IMG/VR virus record: IMGVR_UViG_3300001567_000138
Location: 24,400 to 88,399 of that record
Source: a virus
Length of the DNA: 64,000 nucleotides
Direction: 5' to 3' (one strand)
Positions within the stretch are counted from its first letter, which is position 1. Each line of letters begins with the position of its first letter. Under the pieces are notes generated by a model. That model did not search any database and was not told where the DNA came from. It saw only the letters and a program-made list of their open reading frames with translations. Positions 1,381 to 58,920 of this stretch are shown here, one piece after another. The translations under genes and the position numbers were made by a program.

Positions 1381-1995
1381 CTACGGCAGGTTGGGCAGCG
1401 GCCCCTTGCTGGCCGGTTCGTTTGTCGGCACGAGGCTACACTTACAGCCTCCGCGACAATGAAGTTTATCCCACGACTTCGGGTAGACGCCTTTAGCGCG
1501 CCAGTAGCTCGCCCTTTTCACGCGGTTTGCCAAACGCACGCAGGATGAGCAGGACTCCTTTGGGGCGTCGATTTTCCACTTCAGCTTGGGGTCGCTTCTC
1601 GCATAGGTGACAGCAATGTTTACGATCCTGTTATACCCCGCCACCCATCTCTCTGCCCTACCGAACAGGGGCGTCAAATGCCCGCCGTTCTCTTTGTTCC
1701 CTGCGATGATAGCGCGGGCGAAGCGGTCGATGAAGCGGTACTCGCTGAACATCTCTTCGTTCAGGCGGGCGCGTTCTTCCGGGGACATCTCATCGGGAAG
1801 GATGCCTACTGAGCGCGCCCCTTCCTGCCAGGCCATCGGGTACTGGCTGTCGATGGCGCGTATCATCGAGTACACGAACTGGTCGTAGGACATATTGCCT
1901 GCCCACAAACCGCGCACCGCAGAACGGACAGCGGAGCGGTAGTTGGAGAGTGACTTTAGGACTTCCGCGATGTCAAGCCCTTCGACTTCTTCCAA
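1381..1995 (-). CDS. Head morphogenesis protein (MuF/SPP1 gp7-like)
   Basis: Directly after portal; C-terminal W...CSSC...HCRGGCKCSL motif; only a TTG start with no good RBS. Confidence 0.75.
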   Translation of the reverse strand: MEEVEGLDIAEVLKSLSNYRSAVRSAVRGLWAGNMSYDQFVYSMIRAIDSQYPMAWQEGARSVGILPDEMSPEERARLNEEMFSEYRFIDRFARAIIAGNKENGGHLTPLFGRAERWVAGYNRIVNIAVTYARSDPKLKWKIDAPKESCSSCVRLANRVKRASYWRAKGVYPKSWDKLHCRGGCKCSLVPTNEPASKGPLPNLP

Positions 1996-4820
1996 AAAGG
2001 GACTTGCGGAGCGGCCCCCTTGACGCGCTCTTCATCGTTGTCGGGTTCTAGTTCGTCCACGTCAAACTCCTCGCGTTGAATAGTCGTTGGGTTTACCCTG
2101 CGGATACGGGGGTCGCGTTCCGGCCCCGTGTCGCTTTCTTCGCCCCCATCTCCGGGGGGAACTTCATCTTCCGCAGGCTCGAAGTTGAGTTTCTCGTACT
2201 CTTTCATCAAGGCGTTGAGAGCGGCGATGGCGTAGTTCGTCATTATCTTGTTGCGCCCCTTCGCGTCAATCGCCTCCCCCTGCACCACCATGAGTTGTTT
2301 CGTGATGGCAGTAATCGCAATTTGCGGATCAGCCTCCAGGGAGAGCGGGTCAGGCAGGCCGGGGATTTCGAGGTACTTGCGTACCGCCTGGTCGCCACCC
2401 TCGAACATACCGAGAACGGATGTGCCATCGGGTAGGCGTCCATCCTGCAACTCCAAGTAATCGAACTGACCGCGGGAAAGGTCGCCCACTTCCACCATCT
2501 GTTGACGGGCGGTGCGAATGTCGATCTCACCCGAACCCAGAGAAGCCCCCCGCCCCTGCGCCCTGATCTGCTTCACTTCGGCGGACTGGCGGTCTTGCTC
2601 GTCATCCTGGTAGTCGAATACGAGTTGCAGGTAGGGAGGCAGGTACTTCTGGTTGAACATGAGTTCGATCATTTGAATAATCTGCCCCGGCCCCTTGCCC
2701 CTCTGCTTCAAGTGCTGAATGAGGGCGTCGGCTCTCGTGGCCCCACTTGCGAGGGCGGGGAATAATTCGCGGGCATCCATACCGAAAGCCATTGCAATCG
2801 TGGCGATGCCCAACTCGACCGAAGTCCGCTCATCGAAGTTGTCGGGCAGACCAGCGATATCAGTAAGGTTCAGGCTGGCATCCGGGATGCTCGAACTACC
2901 TACAACGGCGATCTTTGAGTAGCGGGATAACCCTTGACTATCCATCTCCTGCGCGGCAATCGAGAAGGCTTCACGTATGTCGGTCGGGTCAAGCCCACCT
3001 CCCGTTACCATTACTCCCCGATACGGTCGCGAGCCGAGTCGTTCCTGCTTGTATATAAGAATATCGACAAGGTTCTGCGCCACGTTCATTGCTCTGGAAA
3101 TGGCGCAGTTGTGAACAACAATCCCTGATGTAACAAAGTTGTGCGCTTCCTCAACGTCGATGCAATACACATTTTTCTTTCCGCACCTATATACTTTCGC
3201 GTCCGCCTTTCTCTCAACAATAACAGTGTCCACCATTGGAACCGCGCCACCAAGTTCCCAGGATTTTGGGTCATACTCGCCATAAATTTTCCCGCCACCA
3301 GGAAGTTTATGGCGCATGGATGGGGGAACAAACGGAGCAATGTCTTTGAAAAACTTCTCGGAAGAATCGACGGTAAACCTGATAACGTATTGTCCACCAC
3401 CGTTAGAGCTTGGCCTTGCATCATATCCCATTTTCTCACGAATTACGCCGCACACCTCTTTTGTCTGCTCAAGACTAAATGCCAGGGTTGCTATTGTTGC
3501 CGTTGGACTTGTATTCTTTCTTGCGGGTGTGGCGAGTTTTAGACAACCGTCGTCAAGATACCATGCCGCCAAAAGTCGGTGAGACATACTTTCTTCGACA
3601 ACCGGCATTGGAATTTCCTTTTTCCCGCTTCCGTAGAATAATTTGTGCAGGCCCATGAACGCAGGTTGACCACGGGTTGCTCCACGGACTGTCTTATATC
3701 CCTGTTTGGTTGTGTAGTCCTTCTGGTAAAACCCAAAGTCCTTGCGGAGTATTTTTGCCTTGATTTCAAACCACTCTCTCTGTTTTTCAGAGTGTCCCAT
3801 AGCAAAGACCGGATTTCCGCCAGCGTTTGACTTCATCAGGGAACCGTCGCCAAGCAAAGTTCCAACGATAAACTGCATTTGATTTTCATTCGGATACGGA
3901 AACGCAGTAACAATCTCGTCCCCGGTTTCTAGATCACCGGCACTTGTCCATCCAGACGGAGTGAGAACGGGATGATCTTCCGTTACCCACGACTTGCGCT
4001 CTCTCCGTCCACGAATTGTCTTTGATAACTTTCCCATTATACAAATCATTGCACGGCCACCACGCGGGTTTTTGTACCAGTTAGTCACGCGACGAGGAAC
4101 AAGATTCCCGTTTTCGTCCATACTAAGAACTGGATCGGCTGACTTTTCGTTAACGATGTCCATTATTCGTCTCGTTGTGCCATCGGCCATTGTTACGTTC
4201 GCCCATGCGTCTAAGCAGAATCCTACGCCGTACATCTCCGCAATCGGGGATGTCATCTGGGAACGGTATATCACACGGGTATAGTGTAACTTATACATCT
4301 TCCCGTCGGTGTGCCGATAGATGACGGGATATTCGGGGTTGCCCGTGCGCTGACTCCTTGAAGAATCGAGTTGTCGCACCGAGATCGGCCTACCAATGAT
4401 CGGCCCGTCCGGGCTTCCTGCGCCGATAATTTCCGAGAAACCGCCGTTATCCTGGGTAATCAAGTCCTCAACAAACTTCTCCGCCCACGCCTGCCAGCCT
4501 TCCCCCAACTCCGCCGAACTCAAGAGGCGTTCCGTTTCCGCCTCCGCTTCTGCAACCTGGCGGGGATCGGTGTTATCCTTCGCCTGGACGTGAACAGGGA
4601 TAGCGGATATCTTGGAACACATCGTATAGACGGCCCCCGAAAGGTGGTCACTCTGCTTCCAGAAGTTGCGCAGGAACATATCGCGGGAGGGCGACCACCA
4701 CGCATAGTCGGAAATGCCGGTGCGCGCAAGCCACTGGATCAGGTTGAGGGCGTTACCGCCATCGGGCTTGGCTACGGTGTTGTCGATTACGGATTGGAAA
4801 ACTTCATCTTTCAGGGTCAT
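1956..4820 (-). CDS. Portal protein with intein
   Basis: Follows terL; portal-like exteins (LITQDNGGFSEI; IATIAMAFGMD) flank a 370-aa intein. Confidence 0.88.
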   Translation of the reverse strand: MTLKDEVFQSVIDNTVAKPDGGNALNLIQWLARTGISDYAWWSPSRDMFLRNFWKQSDHLSGAVYTMCSKISAIPVHVQAKDNTDPRQVAEAEAETERLLSSAELGEGWQAWAEKFVEDLITQDNGGFSEIIGAGSPDGPIIGRPISVRQLDSSRSQRTGNPEYPVIYRHTDGKMYKLHYTRVIYRSQMTSPIAEMYGVGFCLDAWANVTMADGTTRRIMDIVNEKSADPVLSMDENGNLVPRRVTNWYKNPRGGRAMICIMGKLSKTIRGRRERKSWVTEDHPVLTPSGWTSAGDLETGDEIVTAFPYPNENQMQFIVGTLLGDGSLMKSNAGGNPVFAMGHSEKQREWFEIKAKILRKDFGFYQKDYTTKQGYKTVRGATRGQPAFMGLHKLFYGSGKKEIPMPVVEESMSHRLLAAWYLDDGCLKLATPARKNTSPTATIATLAFSLEQTKEVCGVIREKMGYDARPSSNGGGQYVIRFTVDSSEKFFKDIAPFVPPSMRHKLPGGGKIYGEYDPKSWELGGAVPMVDTVIVERKADAKVYRCGKKNVYCIDVEEAHNFVTSGIVVHNCAISRAMNVAQNLVDILIYKQERLGSRPYRGVMVTGGGLDPTDIREAFSIAAQEMDSQGLSRYSKIAVVGSSSIPDASLNLTDIAGLPDNFDERTSVELGIATIAMAFGMDARELFPALASGATRADALIQHLKQRGKGPGQIIQMIELMFNQKYLPPYLQLVFDYQDDEQDRQSAEVKQIRAQGRGASLGSGEIDIRTARQQMVEVGDLSRGQFDYLELQDGRLPDGTSVLGMFEGGDQAVRKYLEIPGLPDPLSLEADPQIAITAITKQLMVVQGEAIDAKGRNKIMTNYAIAALNALMKEYEKLNFEPAEDEVPPGDGGEESDTGPERDPRIRRVNPTTIQREEFDVDELEPDNDEERVKGAAPQVPFWKKSKGLTSRKS
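3108..4217 (-). mobile_element. Intein with LAGLIDADG homing endonuclease
   Basis: Starts CLDAWANVTMADG, block B VTEDHP, LAGLIDADG motifs GTLLGDG and AWYLDDG, ends VVHN with +1 Cys; more AT-rich than its flanks. Confidence 0.95.
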
Positions 4821-4828
4821 CGTTCCTC

Positions 4829-6490
4829 CTAGTCCGACAGGCGGACTACTTTGGCTTTCTCGGCAGGCATAAAGGTCAATACAAGTGCATCGGCATAGTT
4901 AGGCGAGCGGCCTAGCTTCTGGCGCATCGTCTCTTTGTCCATCACGTAAATCTTCCCGTTGCGTACCTCGTAGGTGGGCAGCAGCATTTCTTCTAGCAGC
5001 ATGGGTTCGGGGGGGATCATCGCATTCGGGTCGGTGCGCAGCCACTCACGCAAGGCCCACCACAACTGGTCGCGCAACTGGAAGAACTCGCCCATGTGGG
5101 TCTTGATGAAGGGTAGCGGCTTGGCGCTAAACTTTGCGCTGACCGTCCTCAAGCCCTTCTGTTGGCGGGTCATGTAGGGAGCCACGGCTGACCCAACTCC
5201 CGTACCGTCAATGATAGCGAACGTGATCCCCTTGCGCCTGCAAATAGCAACGGCGTTATCGGCGGTCATAATCACATCCACCCCCTGCCAGATACGCTCC
5301 ACTCGCTCCACGTAACTACCGTAGCGGATCATGGGCACGTTGAAGTCGGGGCCGTACTCTGCCACGTCCAGGCCGAGCTTGGGGTCAACAGAAGGCGGCT
5401 TGTCCCCGTGTTCCAACACCCAGGCGTCGTACCGCTTGCGGGCGTTGTTGATGTCCTCAAGGGCAATCAGTTGGTTCACCCCCTGCTTTGGGTAACGACC
5501 CAACACCATATACGAGAAGGCGTTGTCTGTAATGACGCGCTTGCCGCTTTTCATGGGCGGGTACATCAGCCCTTGCAGGCTCTTGACTTCGCAACCTACG
5601 AGACAGTCGGGGACATCGAAACTTTCTTCGTCAGACGGGGTTTCGCCTTCGACGGCGGGCCGTGTCCAGTCATTGATACGGCGAACCACGGTTTCACGCG
5701 TGACTGCACCGGGGATAATGTCTTTTCCCGTTATCACGTTTGGGTGATTGAAGGATGACAACTGCACAACACGAGCGCGGTTGGCATTCTCCATATTGAA
5801 CACGGGGCCGCGCTGCGCTCTTGGGTTGAACAAAACGAGCAGTCGGGCAAAGCCGCCCGACATACAGGAATCTATACCCTCATAAATTTCATCGGGGACG
5901 CCATCGCCTTCGTCTACGATAAAGAGAATATGGCTGGCGTGCTTTCCGCTGAACCGACTCTTGCGTTCTTCCGACGTTCCCGTCTGCGGGATGGTCACGC
6001 CGGTAATAAAGGACTGAGCGGCGTCCTCTTCTTGCATTTCGTTCATATCGTTTCCGGGGGGCTTACGGTATATTTTTAGGGTCTTGATCCTGCTGTTCTC
6101 AAACAGTTTCCGCCTGCGGTTCACGATAGTCGTTATCTCGCCCCATAAAAGGTTTTGCAGGTTCTCAAGGGGCGGGGCCGATGTCAAGAATGTTTTCGAC
6201 GTTGGAAACACAGTGTAGAACCATACAGCGATAGCCGCGGCAGAAAACGTTTTGCCCACACCATTACTGGACTTCGCCACCGTGACCGGGTTCTCCACAA
6301 CCGACCGCATCAAATCTTCCACGTCGCTTGTGTATTTGTGGCCCAGTACCTTGTTCCCGAATCCAATCGGGTCGGTGCGGTATTGGGAATATTGGAGCCG
6401 CTGCGCGTCAAAGCGTCTCTGCGCCTCTTCGATTGCTTCGGTCAGAATTGTGTTGACTAGAGTTGAGGATACACCGCTGAGATCGCCCAC
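4829..6490 (-). CDS. terL: Terminase large subunit
   Basis: Walker A SSNGVGKT, Walker B FIVDEG, NP motif, nuclease GLDVA...D and SPNYADAL. Confidence 0.93.
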   Translation of the reverse strand: MGDLSGVSSTLVNTILTEAIEEAQRRFDAQRLQYSQYRTDPIGFGNKVLGHKYTSDVEDLMRSVVENPVTVAKSSNGVGKTFSAAAIAVWFYTVFPTSKTFLTSAPPLENLQNLLWGEITTIVNRRRKLFENSRIKTLKIYRKPPGNDMNEMQEEDAAQSFITGVTIPQTGTSEERKSRFSGKHASHILFIVDEGDGVPDEIYEGIDSCMSGGFARLLVLFNPRAQRGPVFNMENANRARVVQLSSFNHPNVITGKDIIPGAVTRETVVRRINDWTRPAVEGETPSDEESFDVPDCLVGCEVKSLQGLMYPPMKSGKRVITDNAFSYMVLGRYPKQGVNQLIALEDINNARKRYDAWVLEHGDKPPSVDPKLGLDVAEYGPDFNVPMIRYGSYVERVERIWQGVDVIMTADNAVAICRRKGITFAIIDGTGVGSAVAPYMTRQQKGLRTVSAKFSAKPLPFIKTHMGEFFQLRDQLWWALREWLRTDPNAMIPPEPMLLEEMLLPTYEVRNGKIYVMDKETMRQKLGRSPNYADALVLTFMPAEKAKVVRLSD

Positions 6491-24363: not shown

Positions 24364-24516
24364 ATGGCATTAATTCCATTGGACATCGAGTTCGACCAAA
24401 CGCCCGCCCGCCGGGAAGATGAGGACGACACCTGCCCCTACTGCGGGGGAACGGGGTACTCTGATGACGGTTCCTGCCCGTACTGCTACGAGGAAGAAGG
24501 CGAAGATGGAGATTGA
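24364..24516 (+). CDS. Small acidic Zn-finger protein
   Basis: AAAGGAG RBS; CPYCGGTG...CPYC. Confidence 0.7.
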   Translation: MALIPLDIEFDQTPARREDEDDTCPYCGGTGYSDDGSCPYCYEEEGEDGD

Positions 24517-51919: not shown

Positions 51920-54501
51920 CCTGACCCTCTCATGCTGTAATAGCGATACTGCGCTGTCACGTTGACGGAAAGCGTAGTTCCCGTCAAACTCATAGCGTAG
52001 TTCTGCCCGGCCTTGCATTGGTCAGACAAGAACCAGATACGCTGTTTTGTGTTCGCCTGCAAGATCGGCGGGCCATTCTGAATAATTGACCACCGAGAGA
52101 ATACCTGGAAGTTTGCGTTCCCGTCACGCAGAAGGCAGCGGGTGGACATCTTCGGGTGTACGATACCGCCGTCGATGTCAAGAACGTATCCCTCGCTCAA
52201 GCCATCGCCTTGTCCGTCGATGGACGTGTAGACACCGAACCATTCGTCAGACGGCATCAAGATAAGCTCGTAAACAACGAGGTCGCCCGCCGCAGTTGCC
52301 GTGGCCTGGAGATCGAAAACAATGTCGCCAACGGCGTCGGCATCCGACGTGCCGCTAAGGAGCGTGATCGTTCCGAGAGAACCCACGCGCTTTGACTTGA
52401 AGTAGGTTCCGTCGATGTTCAGAGCAACCGGATTTGTCAGGCTTTGGATACCGCCCGAAGAATCGCCCGACGTGTAGGCCAAGCGCACGGTGTACTTGCG
52501 GTTTGTGCTATCCCCTTGTGCGTAACGCATGTAGACGTTATATGTTCCCCTGTATTGGGCCGCATAACTGGCGTCAATCGTCCATCGTACTGTGTTTGTG
52601 AACGTCGTCACCGCTCCCGCCGACGTGTAGACGTAGAACTTCTTCGTGGGGGCTGCGCCAAACGATGCCGAGTCGTATGTGTCGTCCTGGAATGCACCCG
52701 CTGTGGCCGAGCAGACGACGCCCGGCTGGTGCTGTTCATCGGAGCCGTTCATCCAGGGAGAAAATTCCTCGCCCCTGGAGAGGCTGCGCAGGCCAGCATG
52801 GATACGGGAACACCACATCATCGAGGCATCGACCGCGGTGTCGTCCGCGCCGCGACTCTTGATTTGTATTCTCGCGATGGCGGGAATGTCCCCGCTCACC
52901 TGGTCGCTCTCTACATCTATATAGGAGTTTGTGACGGTGTACACGTCCCTCGTTACCTGTTCTGGATAGACGGGGGTTGCGCCAACGTCAACGGTGGCCC
53001 GAACCCAAAATGCGACCACCCCATTCTCGTTGCTCGCTCCCCACGTGTTTTCCTGTTTCCAGTTGACAAGGCTAACGCCCGTTTTTTGGAATGGCTGCGT
53101 AACGCTTGTTTCATCGCGCGGGTCAAACGTCGTCCATCCGAGGGCGGAGTCGTAATACTCCCACGTGATCGTCAGGTCACTCTGCCCCGTTCCCAGGTTG
53201 AATACGAGGGAGTTGAACGGGCCAATCGTAGACCCAAAGAGGGTGTACCCCGTATTCCCGGCGGCAACCACGTCGAAGAAACTGTACGGGTACGTTGGGG
53301 GGTCTGTCAAGAGATTGGCGCTATATGATGTCGAGAACGCATCATAGTTGAAGATGTGTGTAATGGGGGCCTGGTTTTCCTTGTTGGCGATAAAGACTTC
53401 GCTCTCGCAGGTTTCCTCCTGTCCGTAGGGGGGAAAGGCAACGGAATACCCGATATGAAGTTCGGGGTAGTCAACGAGAGAATCAATGGACGCCAGGGAT
53501 ACTGTACCGAGCGGGGTCTTTGTTGGAAAGCGCGGAATGAAGTGGAAGGCCATACTCTGATTGGACGCCCACCCCGCTCTGTCCACAATACCCTGCACAA
53601 GCGCAGTAAGGTCAGTTGTGTCCTGCGAATATCCAATCCCGGTCGGCGTGAAAGTTCCGATGTCGGTAGACAGGGTTCTCCCCACGAAGTCCGCATACGT
53701 GGAATACGTAGCCGGGTCGTCCGCCTCTTCCACGCTCACATCAGCAACAATGTATTCTGCGGCCGATGTCGGTTTTACACGAATAAACGCATAATCTATT
53801 TGTGCATACTGAGGCACGGTAACGCCCGTAAATCGGACAGCGCAATCAATTTGTCTTGTTGACCCACCGTAACTGATTGCGATAAGTCCAGTCTCGATTA
53901 CAGACAGGCTTCGATTGACGGACGCATCGTCGGAGCTTGCACTTGGATAACTAATTTCCGTTGCCGTTCCATTGGTTGCAGACTTGATCGCGGAAGTCTC
54001 AACACAGCGCCCAGCCCCCGGTGCGTCCGACAACCAGTCACCGCGCTCCAGGATCAAGGACAGGTTTATCATCGCCGGTTTCTTCCCTGAGAACGGAGAA
54101 GAATACGGGTTATCGTCGGTCTGTAGTCGCCAGTCCTTGATGATGGCGTAGCGGGCTTCTGTTTCACAAGAGCCGCGCGCCACGATGTAGACTGGCTCGT
54201 TCTGCCAGTCCGTCGTCCAGTATTCGTGTGCCTTTGTCAAGAGCGTTCTGATTGAGCGCATATGCCCAATAACCATATCCTGACTTGCGGAACGCAGGGC
54301 GATGTCGAAGGTTTCCATCGCGTTCTCGGTATTACGCATCACGAGCCGCCTACCGGAAGATAGTGGGCTGTCCACGAAAATGCCGCCGCTTTTGGGGTCA
54401 GAAATAACGGGTGTCCAGTCTTTTATGAGAAAACCGTCAGCCTTGTTGATAAGGTCAATGATGGTTGTACCATCGGTGATGTATAGTAATGGGTCAGACA
54501 T
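51916..54501 (-). CDS. Distal tail protein with inserted carbohydrate-binding-like domains
   Basis: Directly after the tape measure; VRFTGVTVPQ.A.I..A...RAGWAS insert. Confidence 0.7.
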   Translation of the reverse strand: MSDPLLYITDGTTIIDLINKADGFLIKDWTPVISDPKSGGIFVDSPLSSGRRLVMRNTENAMETFDIALRSASQDMVIGHMRSIRTLLTKAHEYWTTDWQNEPVYIVARGSCETEARYAIIKDWRLQTDDNPYSSPFSGKKPAMINLSLILERGDWLSDAPGAGRCVETSAIKSATNGTATEISYPSASSDDASVNRSLSVIETGLIAISYGGSTRQIDCAVRFTGVTVPQYAQIDYAFIRVKPTSAAEYIVADVSVEEADDPATYSTYADFVGRTLSTDIGTFTPTGIGYSQDTTDLTALVQGIVDRAGWASNQSMAFHFIPRFPTKTPLGTVSLASIDSLVDYPELHIGYSVAFPPYGQEETCESEVFIANKENQAPITHIFNYDAFSTSYSANLLTDPPTYPYSFFDVVAAGNTGYTLFGSTIGPFNSLVFNLGTGQSDLTITWEYYDSALGWTTFDPRDETSVTQPFQKTGVSLVNWKQENTWGASNENGVVAFWVRATVDVGATPVYPEQVTRDVYTVTNSYIDVESDQVSGDIPAIARIQIKSRGADDTAVDASMMWCSRIHAGLRSLSRGEEFSPWMNGSDEQHQPGVVCSATAGAFQDDTYDSASFGAAPTKKFYVYTSAGAVTTFTNTVRWTIDASYAAQYRGTYNVYMRYAQGDSTNRKYTVRLAYTSGDSSGGIQSLTNPVALNIDGTYFKSKRVGSLGTITLLSGTSDADAVGDIVFDLQATATAAGDLVVYELILMPSDEWFGVYTSIDGQGDGLSEGYVLDIDGGIVHPKMSTRCLLRDGNANFQVFSRWSIIQNGPPILQANTKQRIWFLSDQCKAGQNYAMSLTGTTLSVNVTAQYRYYSMRGSG

Positions 54502-57500
54502 TATAGGTTCTCCCGAATAACGCGGATAACGCTCGACTTGAAGGCGGCGGCGTCCATGTTGCTACCAATGATGGTGTCGCCAAACGAGATGGTGACGCCG
54601 GAACCGGCGACGGCAGGGGCAACCATTGGCCTTGCAATCATCCCCGGCTGAGGTGCGCTGCCAATAGGTGTCGGTGGCTTACTTATGCCAGGGAGAGTTC
54701 CGCCGCCGGTGGCGGGCGGCTGTCCTATTCCGCCTATTGCATCGTAAATGTCGCCCGCCATCGACAAAAGACCATTGATAATTGCAGCCGCCATATCTGC
54801 GCCCAATTGGAACATTCCTCTGATTAGTTTTGACGCCGTGCTTTCGTCGCCTTCGCCAAAAAGAGTTTCTATGAAGGTGTCCCAAAATGTGTTCCACTTC
54901 AATCCCAAATCTTCAAGCCCGCTCACAATGATGTCGCCAATCTGGTACATAAGTAAGTCCATCTTGTTTATGATGGCATCAACAATGAGTCCGAAATTGT
55001 CTTTGACAAAATTCAGCAATTTCAGTATTTCGGCAACGGAGATATTCATGTCCTCAACGCCCAGGATTCTCGCCCAATAATTGATCTGGTTGTTGAGTAG
55101 ATATTCAATAAACCCGCCAACAGTTCCTTTAGCATCTTCCCACGCCTTACTCCAGTCACCAGCAACCATATCGAGTAAGACGGTTCCGATACCGCCAATC
55201 GCTGCCAGTATGTTGTCCAGGTGGTACAAGATTTCTGGTGTTTTCTCGGCCCAAAAATCGCCTTCTTTTTCGATTGCGGTTCCGATATTTTCAACCGCCT
55301 GAGCAATCGTGGGGCCGTTCTCGTCGGCCCACAAAGCCATCTTTAGCAGTTGTTCTACGATGAACTGAACAGCAAGCCCGGCGACCGTGCCGAGGTTTTC
55401 CGCAAGTGCCATTCCGACATCGACAATACCGGCTACAATATCCTGGAACCAGTCGCTCGTAGCGATCTTTTCGATGGTCACGCCGAGTTGACTAAGTTTA
55501 TCGCCAATGTCGGCCCACTTCTTCCTCGCATCTTCCGACGGTGTTATCTTCGCTACAAACTCGTCCCACGCCGTTCCGATGGAGCCAAAACCCTTCTTGA
55601 AAGGCGATGAGATGATCTCCCACATGTCAGCGAGCTTATCTTTCATTTCTCGCTTGATCCTGTCAAGCCATCCAGAAAGGTTGCCGCTAACCTTATCCTG
55701 ATCGAAGTCAAATTCTGGCAAATCAATGCCGGACGTATCTTCTCCATCGCCCGCTCCGCCCCTCGCCGCGGCGCGCTTGCGGGCATCTTCGAGGTCGGCT
55801 TGCGCCCTCATCAACTCGATCAACTGCTGAATGAGTTTCTCTTGCAGCTTGACCGCTTCTTCGAGAGGCTTGATGGCCTTCTCCCACATATCGACGCTTT
55901 CTTTCGCCGCCTGCTGCTGGTCTACGGCGATGTCAAGTTGTTCCTCTTCGGCATTGACGATCTTCAACTGCGTATTGAGATCGGCCTTACTCGCCCCGTC
56001 CCGCAGCATCTTGTTATACTGGCGGATAGACGAGTTCACCTTGATCTGCGCAAGGCGGGTCGCTTCCACAGCAGCGTTGTAGGCTTCTTGTGCCGCCGCC
56101 AACTGTTCCGTGGCGTGGGCGAGGTCTACCTGCTTTCCGAGCAAGTCAGCAAGTTCCTGGCCCAAGCCACCGCCAATCGTGCGCAGCTTCTCGAATATCT
56201 CTTGCCCGATGTTGCCTGTCTTATTCAGTTGATCCATTGCCTCGATGAGGCTTTCCGAGATACCAATGAACATCTCTTTACCGGCAATTTCACCGAGCGA
56301 CCCCAGGTCTACGAGGGCGTCGAGGGCGTTCTTCATCAAGCCCTGAATGCTGTCGAGCATAGAGAAGTCGGCCAGGGTAAAACCGCGCAGGTATTCCGCC
56401 ATCGCCGCTGCACCCCATTCGGGAAGATCGGGGAGGATATCGGGGGGCGAGTGTGCTTCAAGGAAACCAGATATCATGTTACCAATAAAGTTCATTACCG
56501 CCGAGATGACGGTAACGGCAGTGTCAATAATACCCTGAGCGAAGTTGACTATAATGTTCGCTCCCCACTCAAATGCTTCGCCCGCAATATCTTTGAACTC
56601 GCCGCCCATCTTTGTCTTTACACCATCAATAAACGGGATGAGTGTATTGTTGACAAAGCCCGATATCGCGTTGCCGATATGCTCGACAATAAGACCCAGG
56701 GCGACAAACGCCTTGATGATATCGCGCACGGTCGGGAGAGAGATACCGAGTGCCTTGAACAACTGCTTGATAGCATCGTTAACTTTGTCGATGGCGTCAA
56801 ACATCTTTTCAAAAACAAATACGAGGCCGAGTCCAATACGCCGAAATTCTTCCAGCGCCTCGTTAGACGTTAGTTCTTTCAGTAGTTTCGATAAACGGTC
56901 TGACACGAGATTGATTGCAGGGGAGAGCATCTTCCAGCCAATCGCTGTCTTGAAGAAGTCCTGGAAGTTGTCTCTAACCGCCTTTAGTGTGGCGTTCAGG
57001 TTTCTGGCTGCGCCCGGAAAGTCTCTTTCCGCATAGGTCAAGAAGGCGTCGAAGAACTGCTCGACCCCAATTTGCCCATCTGCTGCGGCCTGGCGGAACT
57101 CGATCAGCCCGTTAGCAGCAATACCGAGTTTCTCGGCAGCGATGTCGAGGATTTCAGTCAGCGGGAAGTAAGCGCCACGGGCAAGGTCGCGCATTTCGGT
57201 TGCCGTAACCTTCCCTGCCGCCTTCATCTGTGCAAAGTTGAAGATGATGCGATCCATCGTTTCGCTTGTCAGGCCCATCGCCGCGGAGTAGTCCAAGATG
57301 GCGGTAGTCAAGTCTTTGGCCCCTTGTACCGTCCACCCCATCGCCGTAGCAAATGCGAACGTGTCCGCGATCTTGTCGGAACTGAATGGGGTTGCCATAG
57401 CCAGTTCCGCAATCCACTCCAACGCCTCTCTAGCAGCACTACCGGCGTAAGTAATGGATTGTGCCATATCATCCGTAACGCCCGCCGCGCGTATCTGGCG

Positions 57501-58100
57501 GGCGATCATGTTCTCTATACGGATTGTTACATCTTGCAGGTTCCCCGCTGCTGTTACCGCTGTCACGATCCACGCTTTCATGTCGCTCGTCACTTTGCGA
57601 ATACCGCCCGACACCATATCCCACAAAGCGTTACCGAAGAACGCCCCCTTGACAAGGTTGCCTAAACTGATCCCCGCCCCGCCAACGGCGGTCTTTGTCC
57701 CGATCAGGGCGGTTACAACGTGGGCGAGAGCGTTGACCATGTGCATCGACGCCTGCTTGGTGCGCTCTTGTTCCTGGCGGTAGACGACCCACGCGTTCCG
57801 GGTACGCTCGACCGCCTGCTTGGTGCGCTCGTAGGATTGGGCGGTACGCTGTACAGCCTGTGTGGTGCGCTCCATTGCTTGCTTGGTGCGTTCTTGTTCC
57901 TGCGCTACATTCGTTTTCGCCAACTTGACCATTGTTGCATTCATGTTGGCGACACCGGCATTAAATTTATCAATAGCCGCAAGACGATTTGCAGTCATGC
58001 GGCCGAAACTGGCAACCGATTCCGTCGCTCCCGCCATTTGGGAAACGAAAGAAGCGTAGCCTTTGGTGACAAATTCAACGCCGGTGGGTTGTAGCGTCAT
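54501..58100 (-). CDS. Tape measure protein
   Basis: 1199 aa helical; A..TPF...QMKAAGKV...E tape-measure motif. Confidence 0.92.
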   Translation of the reverse strand: MTLQPTGVEFVTKGYASFVSQMAGATESVASFGRMTANRLAAIDKFNAGVANMNATMVKLAKTNVAQEQERTKQAMERTTQAVQRTAQSYERTKQAVERTRNAWVVYRQEQERTKQASMHMVNALAHVVTALIGTKTAVGGAGISLGNLVKGAFFGNALWDMVSGGIRKVTSDMKAWIVTAVTAAGNLQDVTIRIENMIARQIRAAGVTDDMAQSITYAGSAAREALEWIAELAMATPFSSDKIADTFAFATAMGWTVQGAKDLTTAILDYSAAMGLTSETMDRIIFNFAQMKAAGKVTATEMRDLARGAYFPLTEILDIAAEKLGIAANGLIEFRQAAADGQIGVEQFFDAFLTYAERDFPGAARNLNATLKAVRDNFQDFFKTAIGWKMLSPAINLVSDRLSKLLKELTSNEALEEFRRIGLGLVFVFEKMFDAIDKVNDAIKQLFKALGISLPTVRDIIKAFVALGLIVEHIGNAISGFVNNTLIPFIDGVKTKMGGEFKDIAGEAFEWGANIIVNFAQGIIDTAVTVISAVMNFIGNMISGFLEAHSPPDILPDLPEWGAAAMAEYLRGFTLADFSMLDSIQGLMKNALDALVDLGSLGEIAGKEMFIGISESLIEAMDQLNKTGNIGQEIFEKLRTIGGGLGQELADLLGKQVDLAHATEQLAAAQEAYNAAVEATRLAQIKVNSSIRQYNKMLRDGASKADLNTQLKIVNAEEEQLDIAVDQQQAAKESVDMWEKAIKPLEEAVKLQEKLIQQLIELMRAQADLEDARKRAAARGGAGDGEDTSGIDLPEFDFDQDKVSGNLSGWLDRIKREMKDKLADMWEIISSPFKKGFGSIGTAWDEFVAKITPSEDARKKWADIGDKLSQLGVTIEKIATSDWFQDIVAGIVDVGMALAENLGTVAGLAVQFIVEQLLKMALWADENGPTIAQAVENIGTAIEKEGDFWAEKTPEILYHLDNILAAIGGIGTVLLDMVAGDWSKAWEDAKGTVGGFIEYLLNNQINYWARILGVEDMNISVAEILKLLNFVKDNFGLIVDAIINKMDLLMYQIGDIIVSGLEDLGLKWNTFWDTFIETLFGEGDESTASKLIRGMFQLGADMAAAIINGLLSMAGDIYDAIGGIGQPPATGGGTLPGISKPPTPIGSAPQPGMIARPMVAPAVAGSGVTISFGDTIIGSNMDAAAFKSSVIRVIRENL

Positions 58101-58103
58101 TGT

Positions 58104-58337
58104 TTACTTTTTTCTCCCTCTGGCCGCAGCCTCCGATGAGGCCGCTTCTTCGTGCATCTTGACCAGGCGATGAAGTTGATACCATGCAATCATGCGCGCT
58201 CGAAACCAGATAGGATACTTCCCCTGGCTCAGGTCGTACAGTTCTTGCACAGTGGCGTTTGCGGCGTTCGCCGCTTCCCACTCCAGGAACGTCATTGAGT
58301 AAGAGATGTGGGGGTCAACAGAACCCTTGACCCCCAC
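58104..58337 (-). CDS. Tail assembly chaperone C-terminal (gpT-like) ORF
   Basis: Between chaperone and tape measure; frame open upstream into the chaperone 3' end. Confidence 0.7.
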   Translation of the reverse strand: MGVKGSVDPHISYSMTFLEWEAANAANATVQELYDLSQGKYPIWFRARMIAWYQLHRLVKMHEEAASSEAAARGRKK

Positions 58338-58350
58338 ATCCTCGATTTTC

Positions 58351-58884
58351 TCACCCTTCCTCGTTACCGCGAAAGATGGCCTTCTGAGCGTCGATCTCCT
58401 GTGGGGTCACGGAGGACATCTCCTGGACTTTCATAATCAGCCAGATCGGGGCGACCACGAAGCGCTTGTAAACAAACTCGCGCTCCAGGGGGTCTTTCAG
58501 GTCGTACCCTTTCAGGTTGATCTGCTTGCGTTTCTCTAAGAAGCGCAGCTTCTCCATCCATTTGTCGTCCTCTGGAACACCGTCCAGTAGTTCGATGCCG
58601 AAGATTACGCAGGCGTCGATCATGGCGGTTGCCCGCTGCCGGTCGGCGTCTGCGAGAGCCTTTTGATAGGCCGGGTCGTTCGGGTTCGGTTCGTCCCGTT
58701 CCATGTCGGCGTTATGCCACATGGGGACTTCGGGGGTTTCGATGTTGCGCGTCACGTCGTCAATCAAGGCGGCGGGAACAGCGTGAACCTTGACCCTCAC
58801 GCCGTTATCCAGGGTGATGATGTCACCAGGATTGGGTGCGGCGCGCTTTTCTTTTGCGGTTGCGATTGCAGGATTGTCACTCAT
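58351..58884 (-). CDS. Tail assembly chaperone (gpG-like)
   Basis: Between tail tube and tape measure. Confidence 0.75.
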   Translation of the reverse strand: MSDNPAIATAKEKRAAPNPGDIITLDNGVRVKVHAVPAALIDDVTRNIETPEVPMWHNADMERDEPNPNDPAYQKALADADRQRATAMIDACVIFGIELLDGVPEDDKWMEKLRFLEKRKQINLKGYDLKDPLEREFVYKRFVVAPIWLIMKVQEMSSVTPQEIDAQKAIFRGNEEG

Positions 58885-58920
58885 TTTTTACACTCCCAGT
58901 TCGAGATTAGGTTTATGCGG

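Follow-up and report, generated by a model that had tools for sequence, protein, structure and literature searches.

The stretch of DNA analysed here, referred to as the window, comprises 64,000 nucleotides (positions 24,400 to 88,399 of IMG/VR virus record IMGVR_UViG_3300001567_000138) and is part of an 88.4-kb uncultured viral contig. On its minus strand, the large terminase gene is followed by an open reading frame (ORF) of 954 amino acids (aa), an ORF of 204 aa and small genes. The 954-aa ORF is a probable portal gene and the 204-aa ORF encodes a protein labelled here as MuF-like; the two overlap in frames that differ by one base. An earlier note on this DNA had proposed that the overlap holds a programmed -1 frameshift that fuses portal to MuF. 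A -1 frameshift of the type that combines a sequence resembling a Shine-Dalgarno (SD) site with a slippery heptamer is the best-supported reading of the portal 3' end, and probably the right one. The features that bear on it are the following.

1956..4820, minus strand: probable portal gene, an ORF of 954 aa including an intein, whose zero-frame product ends ...QVPFWKKSKGLTSRKS*
1381..1995, minus strand: ORF of the MuF-like head protein, 204 aa, with a helical N-terminal part, a C-terminal Cys cluster and a family of homologs
2032..2034, minus strand: TGA that closes the -1 frame upstream in translation, the frame being open from 2031
2015..2021, minus strand: SD-like AAGGGGG, which precedes the heptamer by 13 nt and the TTG by 19 nt
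1995..2001, minus strand: candidate slippery heptamer C_CCT_TTT, correctly phased for the portal frame, at Pro941-Phe942
1993..1995, minus strand: TTG, the first -1-frame codon after a slip and the sole canonical start candidate of the MuF-like ORF
1975..1988, minus strand: weak 5-bp hairpin AAGUC GAAG GGCUU, 6 nt after the heptamer, not significant
1956..1994, minus strand: zero-frame portal tail WKKSKGLTSRKS plus TAA, overlapping MuF-like codons 1-14

In its own frame, the 3' end of the portal gene reads ...CAA GTC CCT TTT TGG AAG..., with CCT and TTT as zero-frame codons, so that the heptamer at 2001-1995 has the phasing X_XXY_YYZ. The opening of the -1 frame precedes CCC by 10 codons and the TTG by 12, and the frame remains open from 2031 through 1381. 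The earlier note had read the phased heptamer and the SD-like sequence at 2021-2015 correctly, and translation bears out its statements that the -1 frame opens about 10 codons before the heptamer and runs into the MuF ORF, as well as the junction peptide that it predicted, QVPF-LEEVEGLDIAEVLK.

According to the proposed mechanism, a ribosome with CCU in the P site and UUU in the A site would have the tail of its 16S rRNA paired with the upstream AAGGGGG. In a minority of ribosomes, both tRNAs would re-pair one base back, on CCC and UUU, and these ribosomes would proceed with UUG GAA GAA... and read the whole MuF-like ORF, while the unshifted majority would end 12 codons on and release free portal. 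The shifted product would be portal-PF-LEEVEG...MuF-like, of ~783 aa once the intein is spliced out, with QVPFLEEVEGLDIAEVLK as its junction peptide. The minor head protein would then be attached covalently to a few of the twelve portal subunits, compared with all subunits in relatives that encode both proteins in a single ORF. We infer that slippage takes place and that virions incorporate the fused form; some free protein may also be made from the TTG.

Signals of this kind are rare in the window. Phased X_XXY_YYZ heptamers occupy 46 of 18,476 codon positions in its ORFs (0.25%), 24 of the 46 being of the A/T type, and about 0.03-0.06 would be expected in the overlap of ~24 codons. The window's long ORFs contain 42 Pro-Phe dipeptides, and the one at the portal end is the only one written C_CCT_TTT, in a codon usage in which CCT accounts for 15% of Pro codons and TTT for 36% of Phe codons. 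The duplex of AAGGGGG with the 16S tail (-10.5 kcal/mol) is equalled, at that distance, at 0.3% of 3,914 in-frame background positions in long ORFs, and this internal sequence pairs as strongly as the portal gene's own ribosome-binding site. Larsen et al. reportedly found, in 1994, a spacing of 10-14 nt between SD and heptamer to be optimal.

The combination has precedents. C_CC.U_UU.U belongs to the efficient -1 motifs of Escherichia coli (H_HH.U_UU.Y); it shifts above 0.1% without stimulators and is depleted in frame, and SD-like stimulators located upstream of -1 sites have been described as well (PMC4066793, in the portions available to us). E. coli dnaX and elements of the IS911/IS3 type resemble the window in their phased heptamer and in an internal SD-like sequence ~10-15 nt upstream (same portions of PMC4066793). 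Their heptamer is A_AAA_AAG, in contrast to C_CCU_UUU in the window, where the gene pair consists of a portal and a minor head protein. The identical heptamer, CCCUUUU, is found at the NS1' site of West Nile and Japanese encephalitis viruses (PMC11797035, in the portions available to us); that site operates on eukaryotic ribosomes, depends on a pseudoknot and is biologically unrelated, so that it speaks for the slipperiness of the heptamer only.

In the MuF-like ORF, between the opening of the frame and the conserved N-terminal helix, TTG-1995 is the only ATG, GTG or TTG; the conserved part of the family begins at Tyr19. This codon is located inside the portal gene, 40 nt ahead of where the portal stop ends, and within 3-20 nt upstream it offers an anti-SD duplex of -0.2 kcal/mol, in agreement with the earlier description of a MuF ORF that has just a TTG start and no well-spaced ribosome-binding site. 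It occupies the position of the called start of homolog P0002 and of the ATG of locus L043, 18 codons before the conserved Tyr. Relative to P0002, to which the MuF-like protein is 69% identical overall, residues 1-40 are about as conserved as the remainder, and for that reason the N-terminal stretch appears to be translated.

This start is the basis of a less likely but real alternative, in which two ordinary genes overlap and free MuF-like protein is produced by weak initiation at TTG-1995 alone, with (f)MEEVEGLDIAEVLK as the initiator peptide. The distant but strong AAGGGGG, or reinitiation after the portal stop, might assist, and the heptamer would be a by-product of encoding a conserved Pro-Phe followed by TTG. 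The coincidence of TTG-1995 with the starts of P0002 and L043 is in keeping with this explanation, and the L043 ATG likewise lies 29 nt inside the portal gene behind a weak SD (-3.3 kcal/mol), the SD of locus L001 being weak too. Moreover, at least one suitable start codon (ATG, GTG or TTG) is available in 53 of the 55 relatives with separate genes, minor head proteins of this sort, such as SPP1 gp7, are needed in few copies, and, with Pro-Phe conserved as protein and TTT required by the TTG start, the chance of C_CCT is ~5%. However, a gap of 19 nt separates the SD-like sequence from the TTG, outside the usual 5-13 nt, and reinitiation would have to reach back a long way, the portal stop being 37 nt downstream of the TTG. 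Furthermore, the four other starts read in this stretch (those of the portal gene and of three genes after the MuF-like ORF) are ATG codons located 5-10 nt after an AGGAG-type SD.

Entry by still other routes is highly improbable. The ORF could begin at a non-canonical start such as the ATC at codon 9, 6 nt behind GAAGGG, and residues 1-8 are disordered in the structural model of the protein; yet residues 2-8 are conserved with P0002, so they are translated, and ATC starts are reportedly very rare. Alternatively, the P-site tRNA-Phe could slip alone while a rare Trp codon is waiting in the A site, as stimulated U_UU.U tetramers do shift in E. coli (PMC4066793, in the portions available to us), although such a single-tRNA slip would be a variant of the frameshift proposed above and no true rival.

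A third explanation, of very low probability, is that a fused gene has been broken by the loss of one base in the T run, through assembly or sequencing error or through a recent, possibly defective, mutation. One added T would join the two frames, homopolymers are prone to indels, and fused relatives are known, among them the colinear homolog P0057. However, the T5 run is identical in the contigs of four separately assembled runs, with 0 gaps and no other letters across 1400-2115; these runs represent one 2013 metagenome sample, not independent samples, and contigs drop rare variants. An assembly indel or a consensus homopolymer error in the T run is thus unlikely, and the indel that the earlier note had raised as a possible cause of the frame change was not found in these contigs. 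The conservation of the MuF-like N-terminus with P0002 also stands against a broken fusion, as does homolog P0066, whose portal is 74% identical and which seems to have the same overlapping layout, so that the layout would be old and viable. Transcriptional slippage was set aside, a run of five T being too short for it.

The inference for P0066 comes from the ends of the portal proteins. All 14 aligned portal homologs share the Pro-Phe found at Pro941-Phe942 of the window's portal, and 34 of the 120 listed homologs end with an acidic stretch, then K-E-x-G, then Pro-Phe. Nothing follows Pro-Phe in 17 of the 34, one residue in 4, two in 9, and 4, 5, 8 and 11 residues in one each, compared with 12 in the window. 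These tails are unrelated to one another, the longest being WERLTDLISGK in P0066. The zero-frame tail is not conserved; the overlapping -1 frame is, both between the window and P0002 and in the back-translation of the P0066 tail. When the 11-residue tail of P0066 is back-translated and read in the -1 frame, it can encode 9 of 12 residues at the N-terminus of the window's MuF-like protein, a score equalled by 1 in 3,000 shuffles; because of this match, the overlapping -1 layout, including TTT TGG, is very probably shared with the P0066 lineage, whose portal has diverged by 26%.

Several searches for further junctions of this kind gave little. The contigs of the 34 portals that end around Pro-Phe contain no detected homolog of the window's MuF-like protein; viral contigs searched with the portal alignment yielded 26 loci, none of them ending in Pro-Phe, and viral contigs searched with the single MuF-like protein yielded nothing. 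A search with a degenerate junction pattern gave 0 matches, and a search of genome contigs gave 2 loci, both distant. The sole other locus with a Pro-Phe joint that was compared as DNA is L008, which has near-identical copies (L020, L055, L129 and L130).

L008 encodes an in-frame fusion of portal and MuF-like protein, 40% identical to the window in the MuF-like part and ~43% in the portal part. Its joint reads GAA GAA GGG GGT GAA AAG TCC CTA TCC CCT TTT GAC, and it carries the same in-phase C_CCT_TTT at the homologous Pro-Phe, with a chance of 3.7% given Pro-Phe and the ORF's own codon usage. AAGGGGG is again present, 15 nt upstream of the heptamer and in another codon phase (encoding E-G-G, against K-G-A in the window), with a duplex of -11.7 kcal/mol that is matched at 0.12% of 1,725 positions. 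In the -1 frame, TGA is the very next codon after a slip. As in dnaX, the long product comes from the zero frame and reading in the -1 frame ends immediately, and a slip would release a portal ending in Pro-Phe, the end seen in the 17 stand-alone portals. Initiation cannot explain these signals, because the joint needs no start codon; the explanation by initiation at TTG-1995 thus leaves unaccounted for a locus that keeps the heptamer, AAGGGGG at a similar spacing and an immediate -1 stop. The signals of the window and L008 are read here as a shared cassette in two configurations.

A broader proposal, plausible although tentative, is that the whole clade possesses a recoding cassette for portal and MuF-like protein, made up of an SD-like sequence of the AAGGGGG type, C_CCU_UUU and the invariant Pro-Phe, which would work in two directions. 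A slip of the window type would add the MuF-like protein to a minority of portals, and a slip of the L008 type would stop at once and free a MuF-free portal ending in Pro-Phe.

The relatives provide the wider context. The junction set comprises 73 distinct junctions from viral and metagenome contigs, after 18 duplicates and the loci without a junction had been dropped. In 18 of them, three of which are less certain, the genes are fused, with the MuF-like frame open far upstream and in frame; in the other 55, portal and MuF-like genes are separate, and most of the separate MuF-like genes start with ATG or GTG and overlap the portal stop by 1-14 nt. Among the longer MuF-like homologs, P0057 and P0059, P0060, P0061 and P0065 (the last four of 762-778 aa) also match the portal exteins. 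Genetically fused portal-MuF proteins do therefore exist, as the earlier note had stated, in these junctions and within P0057-P0065. Residue for residue, P0057 runs colinear with the trans-frame product predicted here (...GGKGQPPF-CVIGGHIEVL... in P0057, ...GAAPQVPF-LEEVEGLDIAEVL... in the product).

On a FastTree phylogeny of 80 MuF-like domains, at least 7 changes between the fused and the separate state are needed, and branches with good support force 5 of them. P0002 is the partner of the window in a clade of six members (99% support), in which L043, P0003 and L001 have separate genes and P0057 is fused. In two loci of other layouts, L098 (2930-2975) and L075 (241-382), the MuF-like frame reaches the conserved region without an ATG, GTG or TTG. 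That of L098 is +1 with respect to the portal and becomes open 5 codons ahead of the conserved Tyr, and that of L075 comprises 47 start-less codons behind a short unrelated ORF. Both are single low-coverage contigs, which may contain errors or other non-standard entries, and they were not used as support.

A number of observations weigh against the frameshift. The closest relatives compared as DNA, L043 (51%) and L001 (49%), have neither Pro-Phe nor the heptamer nor the -1 relation; their genes are in a +1 relation and start with ATG. Since the ATG of L043, which is 29 nt inside the portal gene and has a weak SD, coincides in position with the TTG of the window, weak internal initiation is a real option in the window's clade and appears to be an established habit there, and both mechanisms may coexist. 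The residue before Pro is Q, Q, E, W or K in 5 of the 34 Pro-Phe-ending portals, and the codons of these residues cannot end in C; the canonical C_CCU heptamer can therefore not be family-wide, and Pro-Phe is, at least in part, a protein motif. In-phase heptamers are not clearly enriched over the 18 fused junctions (5 in 1,260 codons, against ~3 expected), and only that of L008 falls at a Pro-Phe joint. The comparative support at the DNA level comes from one lineage, namely L008 and its near-identical copies.

RNA structure is a further point on this side. Folds of 70-146 nt around or after the site have z values of +0.2 to +1.2 relative to shuffles, and no downstream hairpin or pseudoknot was detected, unlike in the dnaX/IS911 type, pseudoknots not having been searched for. 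Because no stimulatory structure is present downstream in these folds, the efficiency of frameshifting may be low. Overall, the frameshift interpretation of the earlier note is partly supported. The heptamer, its phase, the SD-like sequence and the poor TTG speak for it, but the nearest DNA relatives, L043 and L001, lack the heptamer and the -1 layout. Conservation of CCCTTTT at portal ends, which that note had suggested as a check, extends to L008, but not to L043 and L001, and is impossible in the five portals just mentioned.

The identity of the two proteins was examined from several sides. The MuF-like protein has 56 homologs of 114-239 aa and 9 longer ones of 390-778 aa. None of the 53 aligned family members matches Pfam PF04233 (MuF) at E <= 0.01, a sub-threshold match to VG15 being the only one, and a PDB profile search with the family found nothing. 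The AlphaFold2 model of the protein is confident (pLDDT 94.3, with residues 1-8 disordered) and consists of a helical bundle and a small beta unit that is rich in Cys; C149, C152 and C186 are invariant, and the protein belongs to no Pfam family. Against PDB, the model has no significant structure match (best E 0.15); among its best BFVD matches (TM <= 0.5, E 6e-5 to 2e-2), the names minor capsid protein and head morphogenesis protein recur, and long 'portal' proteins occur as well. The gene is located immediately after the portal gene and is fused to it in some relatives. The earlier assignment to MuF is thus backed by gene position and by weak fold matches to head morphogenesis and minor capsid proteins, but not by Pfam; 'MuF-like' is a reasonable label from gene position and a weak likeness in fold, with no demonstrated family membership.

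For the 954-aa ORF, the neighbouring gene and an insertion within the ORF are relevant.

4829-6490, minus strand: large terminase (phrog_2)
3108..4196, minus strand: intein with LAGLIDADG homing endonuclease (Pfam, phrog_11023), residues 209-571 of the portal ORF

The ORF lies directly downstream of the large terminase gene, and its exteins align, with the insert skipped, to homologs of 570-600 aa. At E <= 0.001, the exteins have 364 homologs, the best of which is P0066, and the detailed comparison was made with the 120 listed homologs (P0066-P0185); they also match the N-terminal ~560 aa of the fused proteins. Pfam Phage_portal is matched weakly by 2 of 14 portal homologs (best E 0.012), and phrog_2662 (portal) by 1 of the 14. 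PF04860 Phage_portal is present in the sets to which all 30 named ESM Atlas matches of P0066 are assigned, with scores of 0.95-0.96 for the three matches displayed. With a pLDDT of 54, the C-extein's AlphaFold2 model is not good enough for a fold search. From its position after the terminase, its spliced size, the weak Pfam and PHROG matches and the ESM Atlas sets, this ORF is probably the portal gene.

The intein that the earlier note had placed in this gene is real. It matches Pfam Intein_splicing (PF14890, E 4.7e-9) and LAGLIDADG_2 (PF03161, E 6.9e-22), begins with Cys, ends with His-Asn and is followed by Cys at +1. P0066 (589 aa) and the fused homologs lack the insert and align across the insertion point, and the intein is present in none of the 120 listed homologs, which measure 338-666 aa. 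Its insertion in the window's lineage would seem to be recent or rare. Neither the C-extein nor the MuF-like protein has a tblastn match (E <= 1e-5) in 50,697 GenBank phage records, and the window's phage group is without a sequenced cultured relative in the GenBank phage collection searched.

Elsewhere in the window, two small ORFs that overlap by 56 nt and have no PHROG match occupy the place of the tail assembly chaperones (58104-58887, minus strand). They lie upstream of the tape measure gene, which spans 54501-58103 and is confirmed by phrog_58 and phrog_167. Relative to the first ORF, the second is read in the +1 (or -2) frame and not in the -1 frame. The first ends ...AAC GAG GAA GGG TGA G, with an SD-like GAGG 2 nt before the GGG-stop, and in this it resembles a +1 site of the prfB type.

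In phages, the lambda gpG/gpGT tail chaperones are a frameshift-extended pair. This pair, T3/T7 10A/10B and the cases of A2, A118 and PSA resemble the arrangement proposed here in having a major short product and a minor, C-terminally extended one at a fixed ratio. None of them involves a portal, and the extension in the window would be a whole conserved protein that is separate in most relatives. Frameshift-extended capsid and tail proteins of phages are reviewed in PMC5009743, and in the 300,000 characters of this 2016 recoding review that were covered, the word 'portal' occurs 0 times. Full-text literature searches found no paper describing a portal-MuF frameshift. In Microbacterium phages of subclusters EA3, EA5 and EA8 and of cluster EB, the portal is covalently fused to a minor capsid protein that is MuF-like (PMC7302621, in the portions available to us); these are plain in-frame fusions, whereas the frames of the window differ by one base and could be joined only by recoding.

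If the two-way cassette is real, every member of the clade would make both forms of the portal, slippage would set the ratio of MuF to portal, and the Pro-Phe-stop ends of the 17 stand-alone portals would be the same site at the protein level. The copy number of portal-associated minor proteins is usually explained by binding alone; a covalent tie to a set fraction of the portal subunits would be a new way of fixing stoichiometry, and it would also account for the frequent fusing and splitting of portal and MuF-like genes on the family tree. Should the frameshift be correct, annotations that start a MuF-like ORF at a TTG or at an internal start behind such a site would be wrong, and the portal gene of the window would need protein splicing of its intein as well as recoding. 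The portal would thereby join the short list of phage structural genes that are recoded.

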